From positions 72,792-136,791 of the forward strand of contig JAFSTN010000044.1 in the NCBI GenBank assembly GCA_017450485.1: DNA of 64,000 nt, written 5' to 3'. The notes beneath the pieces are model-generated. The model had not been told where the DNA came from, did no database searches, and saw only the letters and a program-made list of their open reading frames with translations. The DNA is from Lachnospiraceae bacterium. GTDB taxonomy: Bacteria; Bacillota; Clostridia; Lachnospirales; Lachnospiraceae. Within the stretch, counting starts at the first letter, position 1, and each line of letters begins with the position of its first letter. A program made the position numbers and the translations under genes. Positions 1,089-58,121 of this stretch are shown here, piece by piece.

Positions 1089-1162
1089 GGATTCAATCAT
1101 ATACGATCACCCTTGCTGCGACCCGACAGTACTCGCTGCGGGTGACGTATATGCTTGAATCC
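1089..1162 (-). repeat. Hairpin repeat copy 1 (invariant 33-nt tip CCCTTGCTGCGACCCGACAGTACTCGCTGCGGG on a ~20-bp copy-specific stem)
   Basis: The 5' flank GGATTCAATCATATACGATCAC pairs with the 3' flank GTGACGTATATGCTTGAATCC (one mismatch, one bulged A). The core is identical to copies at 12445, 28090 and 35044. It lies 7 nt after the CaCA stop and 21 nt before the binding-protein start. Confidence 0.9.
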
Positions 1163-12433: not shown

Positions 12434-12444
12434 GAAAGCGAAAA

Positions 12445-12524
12445 CTCGCAGGTGCACATATACGATCCCCCTTGCTGCGACCCGACAGTACTCGCTGCGG
12501 GGGACATATATGCACACCTGCGAG
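12445..12524 (-). repeat. Hairpin repeat copy 2
   Basis: Same 33-nt core. The flanks CTCGCAGGTGCACATATACGATCCCC and GGGGACATATATGCACACCTGCGAG pair. The three non-Watson-Crick positions are C-A on the plus strand but G-U on the minus strand. It lies 10 nt after the stop of the GT2 gene (12535) and convergent with mscL. Confidence 0.9.
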
Positions 12525-12534
12525 TGATATCATT

Positions 12535-13593
12535 CTATCCGATGATCCGACGGGCTGTGTTGGCCCATAATTCAAGTTGGATGAGAATATAATGGCCCAG
12601 GTTGCGAAGTCTGAAACGGACTTTGTGCCTGCGGCCATTCTTTATGTCCCGCCCGCATAGTCCGAATCCCCGGCAAAGTCCGCGCAGATAGGTGAATCCC
12701 ATCATTCTCGCCGAGAAAAAGAGAGTCTTGATGAGAAAGCCGACGATCAGAAGCGGCAGATTGATGATGAACTGCACGAGCGGCATGTTCTTGTAGATGA
12801 TATATACGCTGTTCTGTGCAGCCAGATTCACCTTGAACCGGTTATACCGGGAGCCCGACACGGCACTGCCGGCATGAAGTATCTCCGATGCGGGTTCATA
12901 CACATTCTTAAAGCCCATGATCCGGGCTCTGTACCCCACATCTATATCCTCGAGGTATGCGAAATGCTCCTCGTCAAACGTTCCCACATCCGTAAAAGAG
13001 CGCATCCGATACATAACAGCTGCTCCGCAACAGGCAAATACGCGACAGGGGCGGTCGTAGGCTTCGGCCGGCTTTCCTTTTCCGGGAGTAAAAGCCCATC
13101 CGAGTGCGGAATACAGGTCACCGCAGTCATCTATCCTGTCCGGATCCTTCATACTCAATATCCGTGACTGCGCGGAAAATATACACTCGTCACTGTCCAG
13201 CCTCTGCTCGAGTGCAGCTATCGCGCCCGTGCGGATGACAGTATCGTTATTGAGCAGGAAAACATAAGGAGTCTTAATATGCTCCAGGCCCACATTTACA
13301 GCTTTGCAGAAGCCGGTATTCTCGGAAAGCGGGATTAATAACACGTGTTCGTATACTGGCAGAGCATCACCTGATATGTGTGCTTCCAGCACTTCACGCG
13401 AACCGTCACAGGATCCGTTATCAACTACAACGATCGGGTAATCGCCATCGGCCATGACGCTCTCTATGCAGGCTTCGATATAATCGATGCCGTTGTAATT
13501 CGGTATAAGTACGGTAGTACGGGCCATTCGGTTTACTCGCTTTCTTTGGCTTTTTGCTCGAGCTTTTCTTTGGCTTTTATGCTCGCGGATCAT
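12535..13593 (-). CDS. Family 2 glycosyltransferase (rhamnosyltransferase-like)
   Basis: TVLIPNYNGIDYIEACIESV, VVVDNGSCDGS and LLNNDTV are GT-A/GT2 signatures. An alternative start at ATG 13527 (MARTTVLIPNYNG) would remove the K/R-rich extension and the 17-nt overlap with the upstream gene. Confidence 0.85.
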   Translation of the reverse strand: MIREHKSQRKARAKSQRKRVNRMARTTVLIPNYNGIDYIEACIESVMADGDYPIVVVDNGSCDGSREVLEAHISGDALPVYEHVLLIPLSENTGFCKAVNVGLEHIKTPYVFLLNNDTVIRTGAIAALEQRLDSDECIFSAQSRILSMKDPDRIDDCGDLYSALGWAFTPGKGKPAEAYDRPCRVFACCGAAVMYRMRSFTDVGTFDEEHFAYLEDIDVGYRARIMGFKNVYEPASEILHAGSAVSGSRYNRFKVNLAAQNSVYIIYKNMPLVQFIINLPLLIVGFLIKTLFFSARMMGFTYLRGLCRGFGLCGRDIKNGRRHKVRFRLRNLGHYILIQLELWANTARRIIG

Positions 13594-15117: not shown

Positions 15118-16353
15118 ATGAACCCTAAAATTGACAGAGCTTCTATCAAACTTCAGTCGAAGCAGCAGTTACAGGGCAAGATATGGATGACTTTCCTGTG
15201 CGTCCTGGTTGCTTCGCTCATAGGCGGAGCTATCGGAGGGATTCCGTCTAAGGTAATGCAGTATACCGACTCAGGTATCGTATGGTTTATTGCATGGGCT
15301 GTATATGTGGCTGCTCTCATCATGATCGCCATGCCCATAAATGTAGGTCTGACCAAGGTCTACCTGAACATCACTTACGGATACAAACCGAGCCTTGCTA
15401 CACTGTTTGAGCCTTTTGGCAAAAATTATAAGAACAGTGTCCTCACTCCTTTGCTTGTCAGCGTTTATGAGTTTCTGTGGTATATCCCGTTCTTCATCGT
15501 AAGCATCATCATTTCCGCGATAGCCTTTGCCGGAGCTATATATACCATCGGCGAAGATATCATGGACCTGTTTCTGTACGGCGACATGCCAAGCAGCGGA
15601 AGCATAGCAGGTGTTATAGGCGCGCTTTTCGGGATTTACCTGATCATTCTGCTCATGATGATCCCTTATATTATCATAGTCAACGCTTATGCCCAGTCGG
15701 TATATGTGTTATGCGAATATCCGGATATGACTCCCTCACAGTGCATCTCGGCCAGCAAGGCCATGATGAAGGGACGCAGATGGGAACTCTTTGTACTCAA
15801 CCTTTCATTTATCCTCTGGTATCTGCTGGTGGTTGTTACATTCGGTATCGCGATCATCTATGTCGGACCGTACGTATCGGTGACTCTGACCAACTATTAT
15901 CACCGGATAAAGGGTGGTTATACGGGCCCCGATGCGTATAATAACGGCAGTTATGGTCCTGATGGAGGCTATGGTCAGCCCCAATATGGACAGTCACAGT
16001 ACGGTCAGCCGATGCAGGGCCAGCAGTACGGTGCCACCACTCAGACCCAGGCTCCTTACGTTTACGGCGGACAGTCCGCGCAGAACCAGGCTCCTTACGG
16101 TTACGGTGGACAACCGGCTCAGAATCAGCAGTTCGGTACACCCTCTCAGCCTAAATACGATCCGAATACCGGCGAACCTCTTCAGCCGTCGGCACCCGGG
16201 TACGCACAAACCGCTGATCAGGTCGTAACCGGAGCCGAGCAGACCGCCGATCAGATCGTATCACAGGCCGAGCAGACAGTATCCGAGAGCCGGCAGGCAC
16301 TCGATCAGGCTTCGCACGATATGATGACAAACTTTGATGACTATACGAAATAA
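15118..16353 (+). CDS. DUF975-like integral membrane protein with Q/G/Y/P-rich C-terminal tail
   Basis: The N-terminal amphipathic start (RASIKLQSKQQLQGKIW) and about 6 TM segments resemble DUF975 proteins. The last ~140 aa are low-complexity and include a 13-aa tandem repeat, QAPY(V/G)YGGQ(S/P)AQN. Confidence 0.6.
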   Translation: MNPKIDRASIKLQSKQQLQGKIWMTFLCVLVASLIGGAIGGIPSKVMQYTDSGIVWFIAWAVYVAALIMIAMPINVGLTKVYLNITYGYKPSLATLFEPFGKNYKNSVLTPLLVSVYEFLWYIPFFIVSIIISAIAFAGAIYTIGEDIMDLFLYGDMPSSGSIAGVIGALFGIYLIILLMMIPYIIIVNAYAQSVYVLCEYPDMTPSQCISASKAMMKGRRWELFVLNLSFILWYLLVVVTFGIAIIYVGPYVSVTLTNYYHRIKGGYTGPDAYNNGSYGPDGGYGQPQYGQSQYGQPMQGQQYGATTQTQAPYVYGGQSAQNQAPYGYGGQPAQNQQFGTPSQPKYDPNTGEPLQPSAPGYAQTADQVVTGAEQTADQIVSQAEQTVSESRQALDQASHDMMTNFDDYTK

Positions 16354-16364
16354 AGACTGCATTG

Positions 16365-16393
16365 AAAAAGGCCCCCGGCGGGGGCCTTTTTTT
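16365..16393. terminator. Bidirectional intrinsic terminator
   Basis: AAAAA-GGCCCCC-GGC-GGGGGCC-TTTTTTT: a GC stem flanked by an A-tract and a T-tract, between convergent genes. The T-tract overlaps the phosphohexomutase stop codon. Confidence 0.85.
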
Positions 16394-18119
16394 AGATATT
16401 TGCTTTAACAGCCTCTGTCAATGCTTCCAGCTTTTTAGCCGCATCATCTGCGCTCGTTCCCTTGACTCCCATATAGAACTTGATCTTCGGCTCAGTACCC
16501 GAAGGCCTTGCACAACACCAGTTATTATCCGGCAGATCGAAGTAGAGTACGTTGGATGCAGGCAGGCCTGTTGGTGATTTTGCACCGGTCTCCATATCCA
16601 GAATATCTCCGGTCTTGTAATCTCTGAATTTCAGTACCTTCAGATCGCCGAAGCTCTTCGGAGGATCGTTTCTGAGCTTGTCCATGGTTGCCTGGATCTG
16701 CTTTGCTCCATCCGCGCCCTTCATGGTGATCGTGTACTGTGTCTCTTTGAAGTATCCGTATTTCTCATAGAGCTCGTTCATCATATCGCAGAGAGTCTTA
16801 CCGTTCTTCTTGCAGAAGGAAGCGACCTCACACAACATCATGACTGCTACGATAGCGTCCTTATCTCTCGCATGGGTACCGGCCAGACATCCGTATGACT
16901 CCTCAAGGCCGAATACATAGTTGTTATCCTTGTTACCGGCCTGCTCGAAGAGTTTTATCTGCTCTCCGATGTATTTGAAACCGGTCAGGACCTCGATCAG
17001 CTTGACGCCGTAGCTTGCTGTTATCGGGAAAGTCATGTTTGTGGTTACTATAGTCGTTACCATAGTAGGATTGGCGGGCATAGTGCCTGTGGCTTTTCTC
17101 TCACGCAGGATGTACTCTGCGATCAGCATACCCGACATATTTCCGGTAAAAGCCATATATTCGCCGGTCCCCGAATCCTTGGCATATACACCGAGACGAT
17201 CGGCATCAGGGTCGGTAGCAAGCACGATATCCGCATCTTTTTCCTTAGCCAGGTTCAGAGCATAGGTAAACGCTTTGGGATCCTCGGGGTTAGGATAATC
17301 AAGAGTGGTAAAATCGGGATCCGGGCCGGTCTGCTCGGGAACCACATATACATTCTCGAAGCCGAGTTCCTTAAGGATCCTCTGCGTAGGCTTGTTACCT
17401 GCTCCGCAAAGAGGCGTATATACGATCTTGAGATCTTTTGCAACAGCAGCGATCACATCGGGATGAATGATCTGCTTCTTGAGCTCTGCCATATATTTAT
17501 CGTCTATAGCCGAACCGATCTCCTCATAGAGGCCTGCCGATTTAGCTTCATCCACGGTCATTTTCCTGCAGTCGCTGTAGTTGACGATTGCCTGAACCTC
17601 TCCGATTATGCCTGTGTCGTGAGGAGGAGTGACCTGGGCACCGTCTTCCCAATATACCTTGTATCCGTTATATTCGGGGGGATTGTGGCTGGCGGTTACG
17701 TTGATACCGGCTGTGCAGCCCAGCTCTCTGACTGCGAAAGACAGCTCGGGAGTGGGTCTGAGCTCATCAAACACGTAAGCCTTGATGCCATTTGCTGCCA
17801 GACATGTAGCAGCAATATCGGCGAACTCACGTCCCATGCGGCGGCAGTCATAGGCGATGGCAACACCTTTGGACTGTGTCCCGGCCTTGATTATATAGTT
17901 TGCAAGGCCCTGTGTAGCCTTGTGTACGGTATATATGTTCATGCGGTTGGTACCGGCACCGATCACTCCGCGCAGTCCGCCGGTCCCGAACTCGAGCTCT
18001 TTGTAGAAACGATCCTCGATTTCTTTGTCATCACCCTCTATAGCCTTGAGTTCAGCCTTGGTCGCGTCATCGAACCAGGGATCCTCCAACCACTTACGAT
18101 ATTCGTCCTGATAGCTCAT
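16392..18119 (-). CDS. Phosphoglucomutase/phosphomannomutase-family phosphohexomutase (PgcA-like)
   Basis: 575 aa. The active-site loop TASHNPPEYNGYK, the metal loop ATDPDADR and the sugar loop GLEESYG are present. SD AAGGAGG lies upstream. Confidence 0.9.
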   Translation of the reverse strand: MSYQDEYRKWLEDPWFDDATKAELKAIEGDDKEIEDRFYKELEFGTGGLRGVIGAGTNRMNIYTVHKATQGLANYIIKAGTQSKGVAIAYDCRRMGREFADIAATCLAANGIKAYVFDELRPTPELSFAVRELGCTAGINVTASHNPPEYNGYKVYWEDGAQVTPPHDTGIIGEVQAIVNYSDCRKMTVDEAKSAGLYEEIGSAIDDKYMAELKKQIIHPDVIAAVAKDLKIVYTPLCGAGNKPTQRILKELGFENVYVVPEQTGPDPDFTTLDYPNPEDPKAFTYALNLAKEKDADIVLATDPDADRLGVYAKDSGTGEYMAFTGNMSGMLIAEYILRERKATGTMPANPTMVTTIVTTNMTFPITASYGVKLIEVLTGFKYIGEQIKLFEQAGNKDNNYVFGLEESYGCLAGTHARDKDAIVAVMMLCEVASFCKKNGKTLCDMMNELYEKYGYFKETQYTITMKGADGAKQIQATMDKLRNDPPKSFGDLKVLKFRDYKTGDILDMETGAKSPTGLPASNVLYFDLPDNNWCCARPSGTEPKIKFYMGVKGTSADDAAKKLEALTEAVKANI

Positions 18120-18243: not shown

Positions 18244-18517
18244 GGTGCTACCTAAACGGTGGCGGTTAGTCCTCTGTCAGGGAGTACAAGCCCTGTTAAT
18301 ATAGAAACCCGTGAGGGAATAACTATAGGAGGAAATGTACTATGATCACCATGGAAAGCCTTATGGCGCTTATCGGGCTATGTATTACGATATTTGGTCT
18401 CGGCTATTCCATTGGAAGGAATAGCAAGCATTAAATAATCGCCACAGCCCGGAAAGCAGTTGGCGATTATTTAAAAACCACAATTTTCGGACTAACCGTT
18501 GCTGTACGGGTAGCACC
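18244..18517 (+). other. Structured ~274-nt transcript unit carrying the small toxin-like ORF (candidate type I toxin mRNA)
   Basis: The 5' arm 18244-18272 pairs with the 3' arm 18489-18517 over 29 positions: 22 Watson-Crick, 5 G-U and one 2x2 internal loop. Internal hairpins lie at 18279-18296 (CAGGG/CCCTG) and 18437-18468 (AATCGCCA/TGGCGATT). Confidence 0.5.
18342..18434 (+). CDS. 30-aa hydrophobic peptide, TxpA/BsrG/holin-like type I toxin candidate
   Basis: MITMESLMALIGLCITIFGLGYSIGRNSKH. SD AGGAGG (18327-18332) lies 9 nt upstream. The ESLMxxIG start resembles the Bacillus type I toxins TxpA/BsrG/BsrE (YESLMxMIxFG). It has one TM helix with a basic C-terminus. It is too short for the ORF track. 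Confidence 0.6.
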   Translation: MITMESLMALIGLCITIFGLGYSIGRNSKH

Positions 18518-26481: not shown

Positions 26482-27492
26482 CTACAGCACATCCGCAAAA
26501 TGTACTTTCAATTTCTTAAACATCATCGAACCTATCGTAAACAGCAGAAGCAACAGGATCCAGAAGTACGCGCTGGAGTAGAAATGCTGCCAGAACCACT
26601 CATCTGAGTACATCGACATCCTGAAGCCGTTCACTATATAAACCATGGGATTGAGTTTAAACAGAGGTTTAAGCTGGTCGGGAACCATATGGATATCCCA
26701 GAGGATGGGGGTTGCCCACATGCCTATCTGCAGTATGATCGCCACTATCTGCTGGAGATCCCTGAAAAATACGACCACCGCGCAGTTGATATATCCCAGC
26801 GCCAGCACCAGCAGGAAAAGGCACAGGTCGTAATACACGATCTGAACGGTATATACAGTCGGATAATAGCCATACAGACTGGATACCAGGATCAGGATGC
26901 CCACAAAAAAGATATGCGTGAACCACGCGCCGATCACCTTAATAATGGGCAGCACGGATATGTTGAACACGACCTTTTTGACAAGATAATTATACTCGAT
27001 CATCGCCATCATGCCGTGATTGACTCCCTCCTGAAAAAAGAACCACGGAACCAGGCCTGCCGTCAGAAAAAGCACATACGGCACTTCAACCCCGCTTGCA
27101 ATCATCTGGGAACGCGTGTTAAAAACCTTATCGAACACTATCCAGTACATCAGCACGGTCACAACAGGCTGAGCCATTGCCCAGACTGCGCCCAGATACG
27201 ATCCGGCATAGCGTTTCTTGAAGTCATTTTTCGCAAGCTTCCAGATCAGGCCTCTGCTCTGATACAGCTCGAGCGGAATGGCTTTAAGCTGGTCGAAAAA
27301 GATGCAAAACAGAACGCACGCCACCACAACCAGCGATATTCCGCTGAATTTCTTGAGTCTCGTTGTTCCGGGGTCATCCATCGGATTCTGATGGAAAAGA
27401 ATGAGCAGCGCCAATGCGATGCACAACAGGATCACGGCTATGATCACTATCTTCTTATAGATATGCGGTTTACTTTTAAGTCTGCCTTTCAT
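26482..27492 (-). CDS. ABC-2 type polysaccharide exporter permease (Wzm/TagG type) with ~75-aa N-terminal extension
   Basis: The core starts with LIWKLAKNDFKKRYAGSYLGAVWAMAQP, the typical ABC-2 entry motif, followed by 6 TM segments. Two extra predicted TM helices precede it. Confidence 0.85.
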   Translation of the reverse strand: MKGRLKSKPHIYKKIVIIAVILLCIALALLILFHQNPMDDPGTTRLKKFSGISLVVVACVLFCIFFDQLKAIPLELYQSRGLIWKLAKNDFKKRYAGSYLGAVWAMAQPVVTVLMYWIVFDKVFNTRSQMIASGVEVPYVLFLTAGLVPWFFFQEGVNHGMMAMIEYNYLVKKVVFNISVLPIIKVIGAWFTHIFFVGILILVSSLYGYYPTVYTVQIVYYDLCLFLLVLALGYINCAVVVFFRDLQQIVAIILQIGMWATPILWDIHMVPDQLKPLFKLNPMVYIVNGFRMSMYSDEWFWQHFYSSAYFWILLLLLFTIGSMMFKKLKVHFADVL

Positions 27493-27504
27493 GTACCGGT
27501 TATC

Positions 27505-28053
27505 CTATCTCAGGTCCCTCAGCTGTCCCCATTTGGTGTCCTTATCGGACATGATCAGCTCCATTCCCTCAGGGATCGGCCATTCGATACCTATATCGGG
27601 ATCATTATAAATGATACCGCTCTCATCGTTAGGATGGTAGAAATCCGTAACCTTGTAGCAGAACTCAGCATATTCGGACAGTACGAGAAATCCGTGTGCA
27701 AAATGCTTCGGGATGTAGAACTGCTTCATGTTTTCCGCCGAAAGGACCACGCCGAACCACTGGCCGTATGTCGGAGAGTCTTCACGCATATCCACAGCTA
27801 CGTCAAAAACTTCACCGGAGATCACGCGTACCAGCTTCGACTGCGCATGCTCGATCTGGAAATGCAGCCCGCGGAGTACGCCGCACTTGGATGCCGACTG
27901 ATTGTCCTGCACGAACTCCTCGGTGATGCCGGCCTCGCTGTATGCCTGCTTGTGATAGGTCTCCACGAAATAGCCGCGGGCATCGCCGTGAACTTCGGGA
28001 GTAATGACCTTAAGTCCCTCGATATGACATGTTTCTACTGTGATCTTACCCAT
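27505..28053 (-). CDS. rfbC: dTDP-4-dehydrorhamnose 3,5-epimerase
   Basis: 182 aa with GDARGYFVETY, RGLHFQ and KLVRVISGEVFDVAVDMR. Confidence 0.95.
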   Translation of the reverse strand: MGKITVETCHIEGLKVITPEVHGDARGYFVETYHKQAYSEAGITEEFVQDNQSASKCGVLRGLHFQIEHAQSKLVRVISGEVFDVAVDMREDSPTYGQWFGVVLSAENMKQFYIPKHFAHGFLVLSEYAEFCYKVTDFYHPNDESGIIYNDPDIGIEWPIPEGMELIMSDKDTKWGQLRDLR

Positions 28054-28089
28054 GATGTTTTTCCCGTCCTTATATATATATCCGGCCTC

Positions 28090-28151
28090 GCAAATCCATG
28101 ATCACCCTTGCTGCGACCCGACAGTACTCGCTGCGGGTGACATGGATTTGC
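28090..28151 (-). repeat. Hairpin repeat copy 3
   Basis: Same 33-nt core. The flanks GCAAATCCATGATCAC and GTGACATGGATTTGC pair perfectly apart from the conserved bulged A. It lies 10 nt after the GH25 gene stop and 36 nt before the rfbC start. Confidence 0.9.
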
Positions 28152-28161
28152 TCGTCCTATA

Positions 28162-29412
28162 TTATCTATACCTAATATTCAGATCCACTCTGCCTTCGAT
28201 GCCGTCTACCTTACCCTTGGAGGTGTACTGCCAGTAGTCGTAGTAGCCTTCGTAATCGGGCTCATCGGTGTACTGGGCGAGCCACGCATGGTAAAGCGTC
28301 AGCTGCTCGGCATCGAGCTTCTTATTCCACCAGTTCTTCGAAGCGTAGATGCCGGCTTCATAGCCTGAATTTGCGATCGTCTCGCAGAAAGCTCTGGTGA
28401 TCGCGGTCCTCTTTTCCACATCCAGATCGTCAGCCCGGCCCGATCCGCCGGCAGACTCCGAGTCTATGAATATCGGCAAGTCGAGCATATAGAGCTTGCA
28501 TTCCTCGACCACCATACTGGCCTCTTCGATGGCCTCGGTCTCATTTACAGCCTGTGAGAAAAAGTACACACCCACGGGGATACCTGCCTTGATCGCTCCG
28601 CGCATGTTTTCTTTAAAATACGAATCCAGGATCAACGATCCGGATGAAGCACCTCTGTATCCGCATCTGATGATCGCATATTCTATACCGGCCGCCTTTA
28701 CGGCCTCCCAATCTATCTCACCGTTATGTCCGGAGACGTCTATGCCCAGCTTACCCGCATCCGTATATGCGTCAGCATCGATATTCTCGCTGCCGTCGCC
28801 CTCGACTTCCGCCGATCTCTTCTCGGTATCCTCGACCTTCACATCGACCTGATCCTCGGTAAGCACGAGAAAAGCGATATCGCTCAGCGCTTTGAACTCC
28901 AGATCCTTGCTGATCTTGATCATGGTCTTGGTGCGGGGGACTATATATCCCTCAAGCTCGTCCAGTTTGACGAAATAATCGCCTTCACGGAGATGATCCA
29001 CATAAATGATGCCGTCCATATCATCATCCGTATATATGCCGACACCCTCAACATCGGCCACGAACTTCTGACCGGTAACCAGATGCCCCATTCCGTCGAT
29101 GACCATGATCCTCAGATCCTGACCGATGGAATCCATCATCACATTGACCTTGAGGCCGGTCTCGATATTCACATCCGAATGGAACTGCGACGAACCTTTA
29201 TCAAAAAAATCCTCATCATTCAGGAATCCGCTCAGATCGTCTCCGATCTGTCCGCCCTCAGCTTCCGGATCGGATGCAACCACAGTAGCAGGGGCAGGGT
29301 GTCCGAACCGTCTCCTGATGGTATCCCAGTTCATCACGAGCACCAGCACCAGGATGCCGATAACCATGATCACTCCCATCAGAATAGATTGCCTGACCCA
29401 TTTCGATCTCAT
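28162..29412 (-). CDS. Membrane-anchored GH25 muramidase (lysozyme)
   Basis: 416 aa. An N-terminal TM anchor and a beta-sandwich-like spacer precede a GH25 domain (GIDVSGHNGEIDWEAVKAAGIEYAIIRCGYRG, FIDSES, YDYWQYTSKGKVDGIEGRVDLN). Confidence 0.85.
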   Translation of the reverse strand: MRSKWVRQSILMGVIMVIGILVLVLVMNWDTIRRRFGHPAPATVVASDPEAEGGQIGDDLSGFLNDEDFFDKGSSQFHSDVNIETGLKVNVMMDSIGQDLRIMVIDGMGHLVTGQKFVADVEGVGIYTDDDMDGIIYVDHLREGDYFVKLDELEGYIVPRTKTMIKISKDLEFKALSDIAFLVLTEDQVDVKVEDTEKRSAEVEGDGSENIDADAYTDAGKLGIDVSGHNGEIDWEAVKAAGIEYAIIRCGYRGASSGSLILDSYFKENMRGAIKAGIPVGVYFFSQAVNETEAIEEASMVVEECKLYMLDLPIFIDSESAGGSGRADDLDVEKRTAITRAFCETIANSGYEAGIYASKNWWNKKLDAEQLTLYHAWLAQYTDEPDYEGYYDYWQYTSKGKVDGIEGRVDLNIRYR

Positions 29413-33940: not shown

Positions 33941-35023
33941 TTATCGATTGGAATACATTGAGTCGTAATACTTCTCATAGTCGCCGCTGGTCACGTTCTT
34001 CATCCACTCTTCGTTCTCGAAGAACCATTTGATAGTCTTGCGGATGCCCTCGGCAAACATGGTCTCGGGCTCCCACCCTATCTCGGATTTGATCTTGTCC
34101 GGGGCGATAGCATACCTGCGATCATGTCCTTTGCGGTCGGTCACATATGTGATCAGATCGTCACTGACATTCGCACGTCTCGGATCGGACTCCGGCAGCA
34201 TCTCACGCAGGGTATCCAGAATGATATGGATGATCTCGATATTCTGCTTTTCGTTATGGCCGCCGACATTATAGGTCTCGAACAGTCTTCCCGTCTCCTG
34301 AACCATATCTATAGCCTTCGCATGATCCTCAACATAGAGCCAGTCACGCACATTCCTGCCATCGCCGTATACGGGCAGATTTTTGCCCTGCAGGGCGTTA
34401 TTGATGATCAGCGGGATCAGCTTCTCGGGGAACTGATACGGGCCGTAGTTATTCGAGCAGTTGGTGATATTCGCAGGGAACTTATATGTATCCATATATG
34501 CTTTCACCAGCATATCTGAGCTTGCCTTGGATGCGGAATACGGACTGTGAGGCGCATAAGGAGTAGTCTCATAGAAATATCCGCCGTCCTCCTCCAATGA
34601 TCCGTAAACCTCATCGGTGCTGACATGCAGGAACTTATGATCCGGCTTGAAGCTGCCGTCGGGAAGCTCCCATGCAGCCTTTGCAGAGTTCAGCATCACA
34701 GCTGTACCGAGCACATTCGTCTGAACGAATACCTCGGGAGTCTCGATGCTTCGATCCACATGGGATTCCGCTGCGAAATGAACCACTCTGTCGACATCTT
34801 CCTCCGCAAAAATAGCCGCTATCGCATCTTTATCGCAGATGTCCGCACGTACGAAACGGTAATTTGAACGGTTCTCGATGTCTTTCAGATTCTCGAGATT
34901 GCCCGCATATGTAAGCTTATCCACGTTGATGATGCGGATGTCATCGCCGTATTTGCGAAACATGTAGTGGATGTAGTTGGATCCGATGAATCCGGCGCCG
35001 CCGGTTACGAGGTATGTGTGCAT
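33941..35023 (-). CDS. rfbB: dTDP-glucose 4,6-dehydratase
   Basis: YLVTGGAGFIGSNY and YSASKASSDMLV (YxxxK) are present, and the 360-aa length is typical of RmlB. Confidence 0.95.
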   Translation of the reverse strand: MHTYLVTGGAGFIGSNYIHYMFRKYGDDIRIINVDKLTYAGNLENLKDIENRSNYRFVRADICDKDAIAAIFAEEDVDRVVHFAAESHVDRSIETPEVFVQTNVLGTAVMLNSAKAAWELPDGSFKPDHKFLHVSTDEVYGSLEEDGGYFYETTPYAPHSPYSASKASSDMLVKAYMDTYKFPANITNCSNNYGPYQFPEKLIPLIINNALQGKNLPVYGDGRNVRDWLYVEDHAKAIDMVQETGRLFETYNVGGHNEKQNIEIIHIILDTLREMLPESDPRRANVSDDLITYVTDRKGHDRRYAIAPDKIKSEIGWEPETMFAEGIRKTIKWFFENEEWMKNVTSGDYEKYYDSMYSNR

Positions 35024-35043: not shown

Positions 35044-35114
35044 GGAATCACCGAATATGATCTCCCTTGCTGCGACCCGACAGTACTCGCTGCGGGAGAC
35101 ATATTCGGTGATCC
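35044..35114 (-). repeat. Hairpin repeat copy 4
   Basis: Same 33-nt core. The flanks GGAATCACCGAATATGATCTC and GAGACATATTCGGTGATCC pair with two bulged A residues. It lies 14 nt after the large GH25 gene stop and 20 nt before the rfbB start. Confidence 0.9.
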
Positions 35115-35128
35115 CTTACTCTTCTATC

Positions 35129-38100
35129 TTAATAACGTATGTTCATATCTACATTACCGCTTATACCGGCGACTGAGCCTTTAGATGTGTACTGCCAGTA
35201 GTCGTAACGGGTGGCGGTGTAGGTCGGTGAGGCCGCATACTGTGCGAGCCAGATCTTGTATCCCGTGAGCTGTGAAGCGTTCATATAGCTGGTAAACCAC
35301 GTCTTATTCGCATATATACCGGCCCCGAATCCGGAGTTGCGTACCGTATTGCAGAACGCTTTACATACCGCTGTTCTGGTGCCTGCGTCGATCGCATCTC
35401 CACGGCCTCCGGAGTGCTCCACATCGAGGAATATCGGCAGACTTAAACCGTATCCGCTGCAGAGCCCGATCGCCATGGACGCTTCCTCGACGGCTTCGAC
35501 TTCATTCGTCGCCTGGGTGAAGAAGTAAGCTCCCACTGCCAGACCTGCTGCTTTTGCACCCTGGATATTGGATCTGAACTTCGGATCCTCGATCAGGGCT
35601 CCGGTGGTCGAGCCTCTGTATCCGCATCTGATGATGACATAGGATACACCCGAATTGCGTACGGCATTCCAGTCGATATTGCCGTTCCACTTGGACACAT
35701 CTATTCCCATAGTACCACTGCCCGCCTGCAGATGTCCATCTGATGAGAAAGTATACTTCGCTCCCTGGATCACCTGCTCACCGGTCACGTAATTACCGTT
35801 CTTATCAAAGAAATATGTCGAACCGTTCAGCGTCTGCCATCCGGTGTATTTGTAAACGGCATCGCCGTCTCCGCCTTCGATATAGAACCCGACAGCAGAC
35901 TCATAATCAGCCACGGTCGCTTCAACATATTTACCGTCAGAAGTCTTGATATAAACCTGCCTTCCCGAAGAATCCTTAAGTTTCGCTTTCGGATCGGCAG
36001 CTGCAGTTACCGTAACGGATACTGTCGCTTTCTTGGAAGTATCTGCCTTTAATGTGGCAGTGACCGTTGCAGATCCGGCTTTTACGCCCTTTATATTTCC
36101 GTTCCCGTCCACTGTGGCGATGTTCGCATCGCTTGATGCCCACGTCACACTCTTATCGGTCACGCCGGATACAGTGGCGGTAACCTTGGATGAAGCCCCC
36201 ACCTTGATCGATACGGAAGTGGGGTTGAGAGTTATATTTGCCACATTCTTATCTGCTACCGTAACCGTACAGGAAGCACTCTTGGATGTATCGGCGGTAC
36301 TTGTTGCGGTGATGGTGGCTGTACCGGCTTTCTTGGCACTCAGGCTGCCGCCGGATACCGTTACAACATTACTGTCCGATGAAGTCCAGTTAACCGCAGA
36401 TGTGGTAGAGTTATCGGACATTTTAACTGCAGCCGTCAGCGATGATGTGTCTCCGACGGTCAGACTCAGAGTCTTCGGAGATACATCCACTGATGAAACC
36501 GTTACACTTACGGGAGGCGGATCAGGAGTGCTGACCGCTCTTACGGTAACAGTACATGATGCGCTCTTTGAAGTATCGGCTACACTTTTTGCCGTGATAA
36601 CGGCCGTTCCGGCAGATATAGCTGTAACAGTTCCGCCGGATACAGTGGCCACACTTGTGTTTCCGCTGTCCCAGGTCACATCTTTATTATCTGTTCCGCT
36701 TACCGTTGCACTCAGGCTTCCGGTTTTACCTTCTTCCAATTCCAGGCTCGTCGGAGATACCGATATTTCCACGGATGCGGGAGGATCAGTATTAGACGAC
36801 TGTCCGCCGCTGTTTTCAGATCCCGACGACGGGTCTGTCGAAGTGCCCGCAGAGGGATCGGTCGGAGTATCTGTCGCAGGTGTTCCCAGCTGGTCTGCCG
36901 GGGTATCTGTCGGTGTGTCCGGTGTTGTATTTGTATTCTCGGTTCCCGCATAAGCCAATGTCCTGTAGAAAGATGTTGCAGTCACACCTCTCGCCTGTTT
37001 CATATAACCGACAACCAGACCGCTCTTATTGGGATCCGGGATGGAGCTCTTGTCGATGGCCTTATAGCCTTTCTCGCTTCCGCTGACCAGGGTTTTGCTC
37101 GATTCTACCCACTCAACCGTATCCTTCAGCGAAGATTCGATGGCGGTATCCTGTACTGCGGTATCCTCTTTGGCTACGTTTACTTCGGCCTCGGTCTTCA
37201 CCTCATCGGCCACGTCAACTTTCTTGTATGCGATCGTATCGGTAACCTTGACGCCTTTGACATCTGCCGGCATCACATAATCCTCATACTCGGGACCTTC
37301 AAGAGGTTTCATCGATACATTATATGTTCCGTTCGGAACCTCGGTATGATACATCAGGCCGTCTTTATTCTCATCGGACCAGTTGTATTCCTTACCGGAG
37401 TCACTGGTCACGGTCACCTCGAAAGGAATACCGCTGATCAGCTTATCTGTCGACTTGTTGGCAAACTTGATCTTTAAGTCGGACTGTACGGAGGAAACCT
37501 TCATCACGATCGTAACAGTCTTATCTTCGATCACGATCTCCTCGGGCTCCTCAACTTCCTCAACAACATCTTCAACATCTTCTTGCACTGCGGAATAACC
37601 CGCACGGGCAGCCACGACAGCGTTCAAACCGCTTTCGCCGATCACATATATGCCATCGGTAGAAGCTCCCACCGTATCAAAAGATGCTACCTGCTTCTTG
37701 ACAGTCTGAGCGTTGGCAAATATCACGCCGGTCACGATCGCTGTTATGAGTACACATACACCGGTCACGACGATCAGCCTGTCGCCCATTGACATATTTG
37801 AGAAAAAGCCTGCAGACTTAGCTTTCTTTTCGTATGCATCTGCCTTCTTTTCATATGCTCTGGCAGATTTAGCGGACTTGGCAGCAGACTTGGCATATTG
37901 GGCTTTTGCCTTGGCGTTCTTCGCATTCTTTGCCGCAGACCTGGCATTCGCCTTTGCGCTTCGAGCGGATGATCCGGCTTTTGCCTTGGCGGATCCGGCG
38001 GATCTTTCCTTATGTACCTTAGGCTTGGCTGCACGCCCCCCGTCCGTCCTGTGATACAGCTCCTCGGCCACGGCTGCAGCCTCAAGTTCGGCAGTTTCGG

Positions 38101-38836
38101 ACATGCTGTAGAAATCGAAGTCTTCATCTTCGTCTACAGGCTCCTCATCTTCATAGGAAGCCATCTCACTGTATGCCCTGTATGAATCGTCAATATCGGA
38201 ATCCTCGTCATACCGGTCATCGGCATATCGGTCATCGGAGGAAGTTCCGCGTATATCTTCGTCAGCCCCGCCTATCACACTTTCTTCTGCCAGGGCGCGT
38301 TCTGTCTCCGCCAGTATCGCAGCGGATATATTCATGGTCTCGGAGCCGATCTCATGAGGCTCGTCCGGCTCGGAATCGGACGCATAATCGGCTGCGTCCG
38401 GCTCAGCATCGAATTCAGTCACAGTCGCGGTCGCATACGATTCATCAGCGGTCACGTTCGTCCCGGCATCATCCACCGTGGCATCCGCGTCACCGTCGAG
38501 CTCGCCATCCACGCTCATCTCGGCAGCCAGCGAAGCCATCTCGGCTTCCACTATCTCTGCGGCGATGATCTCCGTACGCTCACCTACGCGAGGTTTCCCG
38601 GACGGCTCATCCTCGATGTCGGCTGAATCCCATCCGGCTGTCTCATCCTCAACAGCTACCACATCCCACTCAGAGGTATACTCCTCATCGAACTCTACAT
38701 CCGCCTCTTCATCATCCTCGGCAGCGCCGAACAGGAATTCGTCACGTCCGTACTCGGCTTCCTGCCTTTTATGTCTTTCTTCGACCCTCTTTTCAAACCT
38801 GCTCAGTTTCGAGGGTTTGTTCATACTTTTTTTCAT
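35129..38836 (-). CDS. Large surface protein: cytoplasmic acidic/basic disordered region, TM, beta-sandwich spacer, three Big_2 Ig-like domains, cell-wall-binding repeats, C-terminal GH25 muramidase
   Basis: 1235 aa. Residues ~1-345 are D/E-rich then K/A-rich, and a TM lies near 350-372. There are three Big_2-like repeats (...VTWDSGNTSVATVSGGTVTAISAGTAVITA...). A CW_binding-type repeat is present (GWQTLNGSTYFFDKNGNYVTG). The GH25 domain reads GIDVSKWNGNIDWNAVRNSGVSYVIIRCGYRG, FLDVEH, YDYWQYTSKGSVAGISGNVDMN. Confidence 0.85.
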   Translation of the reverse strand: MKKSMNKPSKLSRFEKRVEERHKRQEAEYGRDEFLFGAAEDDEEADVEFDEEYTSEWDVVAVEDETAGWDSADIEDEPSGKPRVGERTEIIAAEIVEAEMASLAAEMSVDGELDGDADATVDDAGTNVTADESYATATVTEFDAEPDAADYASDSEPDEPHEIGSETMNISAAILAETERALAEESVIGGADEDIRGTSSDDRYADDRYDEDSDIDDSYRAYSEMASYEDEEPVDEDEDFDFYSMSETAELEAAAVAEELYHRTDGGRAAKPKVHKERSAGSAKAKAGSSARSAKANARSAAKNAKNAKAKAQYAKSAAKSAKSARAYEKKADAYEKKAKSAGFFSNMSMGDRLIVVTGVCVLITAIVTGVIFANAQTVKKQVASFDTVGASTDGIYVIGESGLNAVVAARAGYSAVQEDVEDVVEEVEEPEEIVIEDKTVTIVMKVSSVQSDLKIKFANKSTDKLISGIPFEVTVTSDSGKEYNWSDENKDGLMYHTEVPNGTYNVSMKPLEGPEYEDYVMPADVKGVKVTDTIAYKKVDVADEVKTEAEVNVAKEDTAVQDTAIESSLKDTVEWVESSKTLVSGSEKGYKAIDKSSIPDPNKSGLVVGYMKQARGVTATSFYRTLAYAGTENTNTTPDTPTDTPADQLGTPATDTPTDPSAGTSTDPSSGSENSGGQSSNTDPPASVEISVSPTSLELEEGKTGSLSATVSGTDNKDVTWDSGNTSVATVSGGTVTAISAGTAVITAKSVADTSKSASCTVTVRAVSTPDPPPVSVTVSSVDVSPKTLSLTVGDTSSLTAAVKMSDNSTTSAVNWTSSDSNVVTVSGGSLSAKKAGTATITATSTADTSKSASCTVTVADKNVANITLNPTSVSIKVGASSKVTATVSGVTDKSVTWASSDANIATVDGNGNIKGVKAGSATVTATLKADTSKKATVSVTVTAAADPKAKLKDSSGRQVYIKTSDGKYVEATVADYESAVGFYIEGGDGDAVYKYTGWQTLNGSTYFFDKNGNYVTGEQVIQGAKYTFSSDGHLQAGSGTMGIDVSKWNGNIDWNAVRNSGVSYVIIRCGYRGSTTGALIEDPKFRSNIQGAKAAGLAVGAYFFTQATNEVEAVEEASMAIGLCSGYGLSLPIFLDVEHSGGRGDAIDAGTRTAVCKAFCNTVRNSGFGAGIYANKTWFTSYMNASQLTGYKIWLAQYAASPTYTATRYDYWQYTSKGSVAGISGNVDMNIRY

Positions 38837-57224: not shown

Positions 57225-58121
57225 CTATCGTCTGCGCAGGATCCGGTGAAAAACATAAGCTGCTGCCAGATATATCCGGTTATACATTTCCGCACACCAT
57301 AACAATACAAGTCCGGGCAGCGAATAATAACGACGGCAAAGATACTTGCGTGACTCATAGCTGTTCCTCGTCAGCAGAACCTTCTCCCGGAATGTCAACT
57401 CCGAATCGTCCGGTGCCTGATGGTCGTGACAGTATCCCGCATCCTCTGCTATCAGCACAATATAGCCGGCTTCTTTAAGTCTGATACCCAGCGATATCTC
57501 CTCACCATACAGAAATATATTCTCATCAAAAAAACCGATCTTACGCAGAGAGTCTGTTGTGGCCAAAAAGAAACATCCCGCAACACATTCCGTGCGTATA
57601 AGCCCGGGCTCGATACGATCAAACACGGGATCCCCTGCATACCTTCGGCTGTGTATGAGCTGTGTCTCCGCCAGCCCCCATACTCCGGGAATATTCCATC
57701 CTGAACGCTTCAGATCGGCATGACCTTCACTGTCCAGGATCGCACCACCGATCAATGCATAGCGTTCATCCGCGCACAAACGGTCAACCATCATGGGGAT
57801 CATATCGCGATCAGATATGATCACGTCCGGGTTCAGTATTCCTGCTACCTCGGCGCCGTATCGGTCGATAGCATATCTGATGCCGAAGTTATTACCTGCC
57901 CCATATCCGCCGTTTCTGTCAGACCTGATCACATCTACCTCAGACTCAGAGTAGCGGTCACACAACCGCTCATATGATCCGTCGGGTGAGCAGTTATCCA
58001 CTACGATGATACGGCATCCGAGATCAAATGCTGCCAATCCGTCGACACATCGCACGGTCATATCATATGAGTTATAATTCAGCACTATGAGCGCGACCCT
58101 GCTCATATCACACATCTTCAT
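57225..58121 (-). CDS. Family 2 glycosyltransferase
   Basis: VALIVLNYNSYDMTVRCV, IVVDNCSPDGS and NGGYGAGNNFG are present. Confidence 0.85.
   Translation of the reverse strand: MKMCDMSRVALIVLNYNSYDMTVRCVDGLAAFDLGCRIIVVDNCSPDGSYERLCDRYSESEVDVIRSDRNGGYGAGNNFGIRYAIDRYGAEVAGILNPDVIISDRDMIPMMVDRLCADERYALIGGAILDSEGHADLKRSGWNIPGVWGLAETQLIHSRRYAGDPVFDRIEPGLIRTECVAGCFFLATTDSLRKIGFFDENIFLYGEEISLGIRLKEAGYIVLIAEDAGYCHDHQAPDDSELTFREKVLLTRNSYESRKYLCRRYYSLPGLVLLWCAEMYNRIYLAAAYVFHRILRRR

Follow-up and report, generated by a model that had tools for sequence, protein, structure and literature searches.

The stretch of DNA analysed here (the window, 64,000 nucleotides from a rumen-type Lachnospiraceae bacterium) is chromosomal, has about 50% G+C and carries nearly all of its genes, chiefly flagellar and cell-wall polysaccharide genes, on the minus strand. 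Between these genes the 33-mer CCCTTGCTGCGACCCGACAGTACTCGCTGCGGG occurs four times, always on the plus strand (Table 1), where no occurrence is expected and where 100 shuffles gave no match; the four exact copies described in an earlier note on this DNA were thus recovered at all four places. No further match was found in the window at up to three mismatches. Between 5785 and 11897, late flagellar genes (flagellin-like, two flgK-like, flgN, flgM) adjoin glycosyltransferase, rml and ABC-transporter genes, a layout that would suit a region for the glycosylation of flagellin or of the cell wall.

Each copy of the 33-mer forms the apex of a single hairpin of 62–82 nt lying between minus-strand genes. 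As the earlier note had it, all four hairpins follow closely on a stop codon, at distances of 7, 9–10, 10 and 13–14 nt (genes at 1170, 12535, 28162 and 35129), and three of them also lie just ahead of the next gene, 21, 36 and 20 nt from the starts at 1067, 28053 and 35023. Copy 3 has in addition a 470-aa plus-strand ORF beside it (26689–28101), which runs antisense over rmlC and an ABC2-membrane gene, ends 3 nt ahead of the tip, and is probably spurious.

Table 1. Positions of the four hairpins in the window, with the genes on either side.
Copy	Hairpin	Length (nt)	33-nt tip (plus strand)	Gene at higher coordinates	Gene at lower coordinates
1	1089..1162	74	1110–1142	Na/Ca-exchanger gene, stop codon 1170–1172	SBP_bac_3 gene, start codon 1067
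2	12444..12525	82	12469–12501	family-2 glycosyltransferase gene, 12535–13593 (hairpin downstream of it)	
3	28090..28151	62	28105–28137	GH25 muramidase gene, 28162–29412	rmlC, 27505–28053
4	35044..35115	72	35064–35096	GH25/Big_2 gene (1235 aa), 35129–38836	rmlB, 33941–35023

The four hairpins have folding energies of −34 to −56 kcal/mol whichever strand is folded, with z-scores of −6 to −9. Within the tip, CCC and GGG enclose a TT bulge, then GCTGCGA, an 11-nt loop and TCGCTGC, so that the upper stem holds one T·T mismatch. The tip rests on 3 bp, beneath which the A of GATC is left unpaired, and a further 11–21 bp, variable among copies, complete the stem. Reading and folding the flanks bore out the earlier description of sequences that differ from copy to copy and pair within each copy, with the pair beside CCC/GGG being A:T, C:G, A:T and T:A in turn. 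The A of GATC is likewise unpaired in all four copies, and it lies 3 bp under CCC/GGG rather than directly adjoining it. The C·A mismatches that copy 2 shows on the plus strand correspond to G·U/G·T wobble on the minus strand. Among the loci retrieved from outside the window (L numbers), L011 and L018 are orthologues of copy 2, and the copy 3 element is identical in the same-species contigs L022–L027. Another hairpin with a similar inner stem, at 57805–57886, lies inside an ORF and was judged to be a chance resemblance.

None of the known families or signals that we searched for coincides with the hairpins. The earlier note had not recognised the family, and Rfam likewise gave no match over the 64 kb at gathering thresholds; in permissive mode the only matches were to miRNA precursors, at no more than 21.6 bits against thresholds of 60–117. 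Ribozymes (hammerhead, twister and similar) were rejected, there being no Rfam match and both orientations relative to transcription. A terminator scan of the gene strand placed no site at the hairpins; a T-run follows the hairpin only in the copy represented by L001 and L007, and no promoter or terminator signal recurs across copies, so that both functions were rejected; an intrinsic terminator would need a GC-rich stem with a T-tract directly behind it on the transcribed strand. A Pfam scan of 20 window ORFs returned flagellar, polysaccharide and DUF975 genes and no transposase or recombinase family, and the neighbours of L002 gave no Pfam match.

To place the hairpins in a wider family we drew on two large scans and on protein-anchored look-ups. 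A species scan for an exact 25-mer, covering one genome for each of 185,579 species and blind to copies with variant tips, found five copies: Lachnospiraceae bacterium XBB2008 has two, and a Lachnospiraceae MAG from red deer has three. A metagenome scan in which any loop was permitted added 13 real copies, together with three matches (L008, L015, L016) rejected as chance, these being GC-rich, within ORFs and without inverted flanks. All approaches together yielded 22 distinct sequences, representing 15 element lineages at 13 genomic sites. Counted by exact tips, the element is rare within a genome: two and three copies in the two reference genomes, and at least four to five in the organism of the window. 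No copy was found in phage, plasmid and IMG/VR viral collections, and no description of such a hairpin element turned up in the literature, whether searched by topic or by sequence string. Elsewhere the members neighbour pheT, metG, aspartokinase, ffh, htrA, pncB and sufC, and a link to polysaccharide loci (JUMPStart- or LoaP-like) was rejected on the strength of these contexts. Two Logan contigs with window-identical rmlC (L026:1 and L027:1) begin within the hairpin loop, and the element therefore seems to interrupt short-read assemblies.

The 33-nt tip is identical in every copy except those of L021 and L028–L030. At L021:3070–3153 the loop reads CCTGTCGTAC in place of CCCGACAGTAC, which looks like an inversion of the central CGACAG (6 nt) with one base lost. 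At L028:9865–9969, and likewise in L029 and L030, a perfect 21-nt mini-hairpin (TATAGTTTCGCAGACGAAACT) is nested in the tip loop, replacing one C; this element sits in the spacer from pheT to an aminopeptidase gene, in contigs from the same ENA samples as window-identical contigs. Both large scans demanded an exact tip stem, so that the invariance of the tip is partly a product of ascertainment, and unbiased evidence on the tip is limited to the protein-anchored loci (L028–L031, L036) and to a covariance-model search of 330 kb (the window and the fetched loci). That search recovered no degenerate copies. Nor does any pair of paralogues match from end to end, so there is no sign of a recent burst.

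Alleles without the element define what is inserted. The spacer from pheT to the aminopeptidase gene is 119 nt in L031 and L036 and 138 nt in L028–L030, all filled, but only 25–44 nt and without an inverted repeat in L032–L035 and L037, where the aminopeptidase is 87–95% identical. Empty L035 and filled L036 match base for base on both sides of a 92-nt insert, made up of the 75-nt hairpin plus 3 nt at one end and 15 nt at the opposite end; these junctions show no target duplication, and the empty allele holds no hairpin. At copy 1, the spacer measures 102 nt in the window and 23 nt in ten contigs that encode a 99% identical SBP protein; the ten contigs and the window share the RBS-proximal GGAGGAAAGAAC, and the segment 1080–1169 is missing from these close relatives. 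More distant relatives (88% and 84% identity) have spacers of 21 and 47 nt that are also empty. Among relatives with 95–99% identical flanking proteins the spacers are hairpin-free and 21–28 nt long. The stems arrive with the tip, and the inserted unit comprises the entire hairpin, from the outer stem through the AT-rich inner stem and its single bulged base to the invariant 33-nt tip. Between a few and about 15 flanking bases travel with it; its ends are approximate, and its total length is about 80–110 nt. Since neighbours that are 99% identical differ in the presence of the hairpin, the element has been gained or lost on a short time scale.

The insertions leave no uniform footprint. A possible TTAA duplication at copy 1 and a possible 10-nt repeat at L001 are common to no other copies; target-site duplications are inconsistent across sites and have no fixed length, and at the junctions, whether resolved or approximate, the flanks have no motif in common. 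Because neither arm occurs in the empty alleles, we rejected an origin of the outer stems by inverted copying of the target flank.

Orientation relative to the flanking genes is close to evenly split across the 15 lineages, with seven sense and eight antisense. In two clear cases one and the same spacer holds the element in opposite orientations: L005/L031/L036 versus L013/L028, and L017 versus L021, where the element precedes alpha-galactosidase-like genes with 84% identity. A third case may be L020. There (L020:2704–2928) the left flank, with the RBS and first codons of pncB, recurs in inverted and nearly identical form (84/96) in the 96 nt that follow the tip on the right, and the differences cluster within the outer stem. 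Either two strains with opposite orientations have been joined into a chimeric contig, or the inverted duplication is real and has the hairpin at its centre. Replication-strand bias was set aside as an explanation, being inseparable from gene orientation, with element orientation mixed either way, and GC skew merely tracks gene direction without any separate signal.

Against this indifference to the genes stands an asymmetry intrinsic to the element. In 22 of 22 copies it is the same arm that carries the bulged base. Transition mismatches become wobble pairs on the reverse-complement (core-minus) strand 17 times and on the strand as written (core-plus) three times, or about 14 versus two as independent events in a symmetric arm-against-arm alignment. 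Minimum-energy folds contain 41 G·U pairs on the reverse-complement strand versus five on the written strand, a bias that holds in both the sense and the antisense groups. These patterns argue for a folding strand that is set by the element and not by transcription, and hence would point to a strand-specific single-stranded intermediate rather than to a role selected in mRNA.

A role in mRNA is nonetheless the alternative that fares best. The earlier note was right that this is a genuine and previously unannotated hairpin family; its suggestion of processing, stability or attenuation on the sense strand has lost ground. A host-selected intercistronic RNA of this kind, serving as a processing site, a barrier to 3′–5′ decay or a weak attenuator that tunes neighbouring cistrons, would suit the placement of all four window copies 7–14 nt past a stop, with three of them 20–36 nt before the next start. 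It would also suit the very stable mRNA-sense folds (−36 to −56 kcal/mol) and orthologues that keep intact tips and paired stems where their flanks are 80–90% identical. Some REP/BIME and BOX elements are known to set the relative expression of neighbouring cistrons. Yet about half of the lineages are antisense to their flanking genes, the asymmetry of wobble and bulge goes with the element and not with the transcript, the hairpin is missing from strains whose neighbouring proteins are 99% identical, most copies have no T-tract after it, and an invariant 33 nt exceeds the need of a generic stabiliser hairpin; we consider such a role unlikely.

The same strand asymmetry bears on the possibility that the element is a duplex DNA or cruciform site for a host protein (nucleoid, topological or regulatory), the tip being recognised and the AT-rich stem aiding extrusion. 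The constant tip, the irrelevance of orientation to the genes and the AT-rich inner stem of most copies would all fit such a site, but it would not yield wobble tolerated on one strand only. Nor would one expect near-identical strains to differ in its presence, the scattered housekeeping contexts are unlike a regulon, and there are only two to five sites per genome, so that we regard this as quite improbable.

Orthologous copies have not kept pace with their flanks in their evolution. L003 and L019 have flanks about 80% and arms about 86% identical, with the tip matching at 33 of 33 positions. Between L001 and L007, flanks identical at 295 of 299 positions enclose outer stems (17/26 and 19/26 identical) that have been replaced along with one extension and still pair. 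In L004 and L010, whose flanks are 98–99% identical, rewriting is restricted to the left arm and left extension, and the right arm is unchanged (26/26); the L010 hairpin is degraded because of this rewriting. The rewritten arms look like the outcome of re-insertion at the same site or of repair copying from other members of the family, anchored on the common tip. The persistence of intact tips between flanks about 80% identical may be a sign of selection in place and not of mobility alone, with the caveat that the orthologues with 33/33 tips came from the exact-tip scan and are biased toward intact tips.

Turnover of this kind raises the possibility of an invertible or rewritable cassette, in which the arms would act as inverted repeats that flip the tip and promote break-repair copying at fixed sites. 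The opposite orientations at two to three spacers, the rewritten yet paired outer stems of L001/L007, the one-sided difference between L004 and L010, and the L021 loop with its resemblance to a 6-nt inversion could all be read in this way. A simple flip is insufficient, however, because the outer stems and extensions, too, are unlike between alleles of opposite orientation; moreover, the empty alleles represent copies gained or lost as whole units, and L020 may be a chimeric contig. On balance we doubt strongly that a cassette accounts for the family.

Pairing of the stems was assessed in a gapless alignment of 20 family members. Standard pairs fill 90.2% of the stem cells across the 20 copies, versus 69.7% in shuffles and 34–55% in slid registers, and 19 of the 20 variable pairs have changed on both sides; the covarying stem proposed earlier from four copies therefore holds in the larger set. 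The inner stem is semi-conserved (..TATATG-A-TCN, tip, N′GA-CATATA..) and, in most copies, AT-rich (..TATATG / CATATA..), and likeness fades outward until the outer 8–13 bp seem unrelated among many copies. Contrary to the earlier claim, the stems are not wholly specific to each copy: they do differ between copies and pair within them, but copies that are not orthologous share stem and flank motifs. Copy 4 in the window resembles the unlinked L021 in stem (GGAATCACCGAATATGATCT and GAGATCACCAATTATGATCT, respectively) and right flank; the right-flank motif TTACNCTTCT is common to window 35064, L021 and L004, and AAGATAC is a left-flank motif common to window 1110, L009, L010 and L012. As a set, the stems are mosaic, paired and inherited. 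The further suggestion that a unit of about 42 nt was inserted repeatedly into the loops of hairpins already present at each site, for which the seemingly unrelated outer 8–13 bp might speak, is contradicted by empty alleles of 21–47 nt without inverted repeats at two spacers (including cases with 95% and 99% flanking-protein identity) and by the outer stems and flanking extensions that unlinked copies share, and it is now highly improbable.

We suggest, with belief and doubt about evenly balanced, that the hairpins are a rare, low-copy, non-autonomous REP/MITE-like mobile element of about 80–110 nt that moves via a strand-specific single-stranded intermediate. The moving strand, most likely DNA, would be the reverse complement of the 33-mer as written. 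A trans-acting enzyme would recognise that strand by its tip, its bulged base and its AA/A·A irregularities, much as HUH/Y1 transposases or folded-ssDNA recombinases act on hairpins, while the lower stem would be constrained to pairing alone. Such movement would explain a constant tip on free but complementary stems, wobble tolerated on one strand only, random orientation to genes, near-identical strains that differ in presence and absence, and the want of a consistent target duplication. The stable stem-loop would enter operon transcripts because the element survives only in short spacers, and any effects on mRNA stability or processing are probably secondary. A protein that recognises the hairpin is plausible. 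Confinement of the family to a narrow clade of rumen and gut Lachnospiraceae forms part of this reading and is held with the same divided confidence. The main weaknesses of a mobile origin are that copies are few, that no paralogues were found to be degenerate or identical, that conservation of the tip is subject to ascertainment bias and that the enzyme is putative.

Comparison with known systems yields partial likenesses, and the element lacks the defining features of the REP, IS200/IS605 and attC families. REP/REPIN elements of Proteobacteria, mobilised by RAYT (TnpA-REP, HUH/Y1), are likewise short and imperfect extragenic palindromes that occupy the spacers between genes in both orientations. 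Like the hairpins described here they make no target duplication, are presumed to be recognised in folded, single-stranded form by an enzyme acting in trans, and may affect mRNA stability secondarily. In REPs, however, the stem and a 5′ GTAG/GTGG are conserved and the loop or spacer varies, whereas here the tip is invariant and the lower stem free; no GTAG/GTGG was found at the foot of the hairpins, and REPs run to tens to hundreds of copies against two to five per genome here (exact-tip counts). REP genomes also carry the RAYT gene, as a rule with REPs beside it; the 20 window ORFs scanned gave no match to a transposase.

IS200/IS605 ends and their miniature derivatives (PATEs) also transpose as strand-specific ssDNA, with precise excision and no target duplication, and the IS200/IS605 enzyme reads imperfect hairpins with an extrahelical base, which recalls the one bulged base and one-strand wobble of our element. 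Those ends nevertheless comprise distinct left and right subterminal hairpins and insert 3′ of a fixed tetra- or pentanucleotide target, whereas we see one long hairpin, no common target and no orientation bias against a replication proxy. Integron attC sites are similar in being recognised as folded single strands, in keeping the pairing of a stem whose sequence is free, and in fixing the strand by extrahelical bases. Their conservation is reversed: attC conserves boxes at the base of the stem (R″/R′, GTTRRRY) and has a variable tip, while here the base varies and the tip does not. Sites of the attC type are moreover carried in cassette arrays beside intI, and the hairpin copies are dispersed singletons among housekeeping genes.

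The Firmicute and Neisseria MITEs RUP, BOX, SPRITE and Correia are likewise non-autonomous, hairpin-forming intergenic repeats of about 100 nt that are co-transcribed with their neighbours, and polymorphism in presence and absence at orthologous sites, a classical MITE trait, was seen here too. They carry terminal inverted repeats matching a known IS, have a fixed duplication (e.g. TA) and occur in many near-identical copies, none of which applies here, and a low copy number is unlike typical REP or MITE families. The origins of CRESS-DNA viruses and rolling-circle replicons, with an invariant loop on a variable paired stem read as ssDNA by HUH enzymes, offer an analogy of architecture only: the hairpins match no nonanucleotide, no replicon goes with them, and they are missing from the phage, plasmid and viral collections.

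Taken further, the family might represent a new kind of bacterial mobile hairpin, in which an invariant, asymmetric apical module is recognised, the basal stem is free so long as it pairs, and one defined strand moves by means of an enzyme not yet linked to such elements; the same operon spacers would be re-used in either orientation, and arms would be rewritten between near-identical strains. This stronger claim is tentative, and we would not be surprised to see it fail. If the family is indeed a mobile hairpin of the kind suggested above, it would be a compact and experimentally tractable element whose conservation is the reverse of that in REP and attC, with the tip kept and the base free, and it might offer a route to a new ssDNA-handling enzyme or a new mode of hairpin recognition. 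The element occurs in a cultivable rumen isolate, strain XBB2008. It accounts for surprising expansions of 80–100 nt in operon spacers of Lachnospiraceae, and it marks places where metagenome assemblies break or fold back. It also carries a caution, in that ‘covariation’ in such hairpins is no proof of a regulatory RNA.

Two other features of the window deserve mention in their own right. A perfect 13-bp GC-rich palindrome (AAAAAGGCCCCCG C CGGGGGCCTTTTT, 16365–16391), flanked by A and T runs, sits between the convergent genes 15118–16353 (plus strand, DUF975) and 16392–18119 (minus strand, phosphoglucomutase) and resembles a terminator acting in both directions. The phosphoglucomutase gene is preceded by a 445-nt gap that holds a full-consensus promoter-like TTGACA-17-TATAAT on the minus strand (18559–18531) and a perfect 14-nt inverted repeat (TTAAATAATCGCCA/TGGCGATTATTTAA, 18431–18474), which could be an operator.
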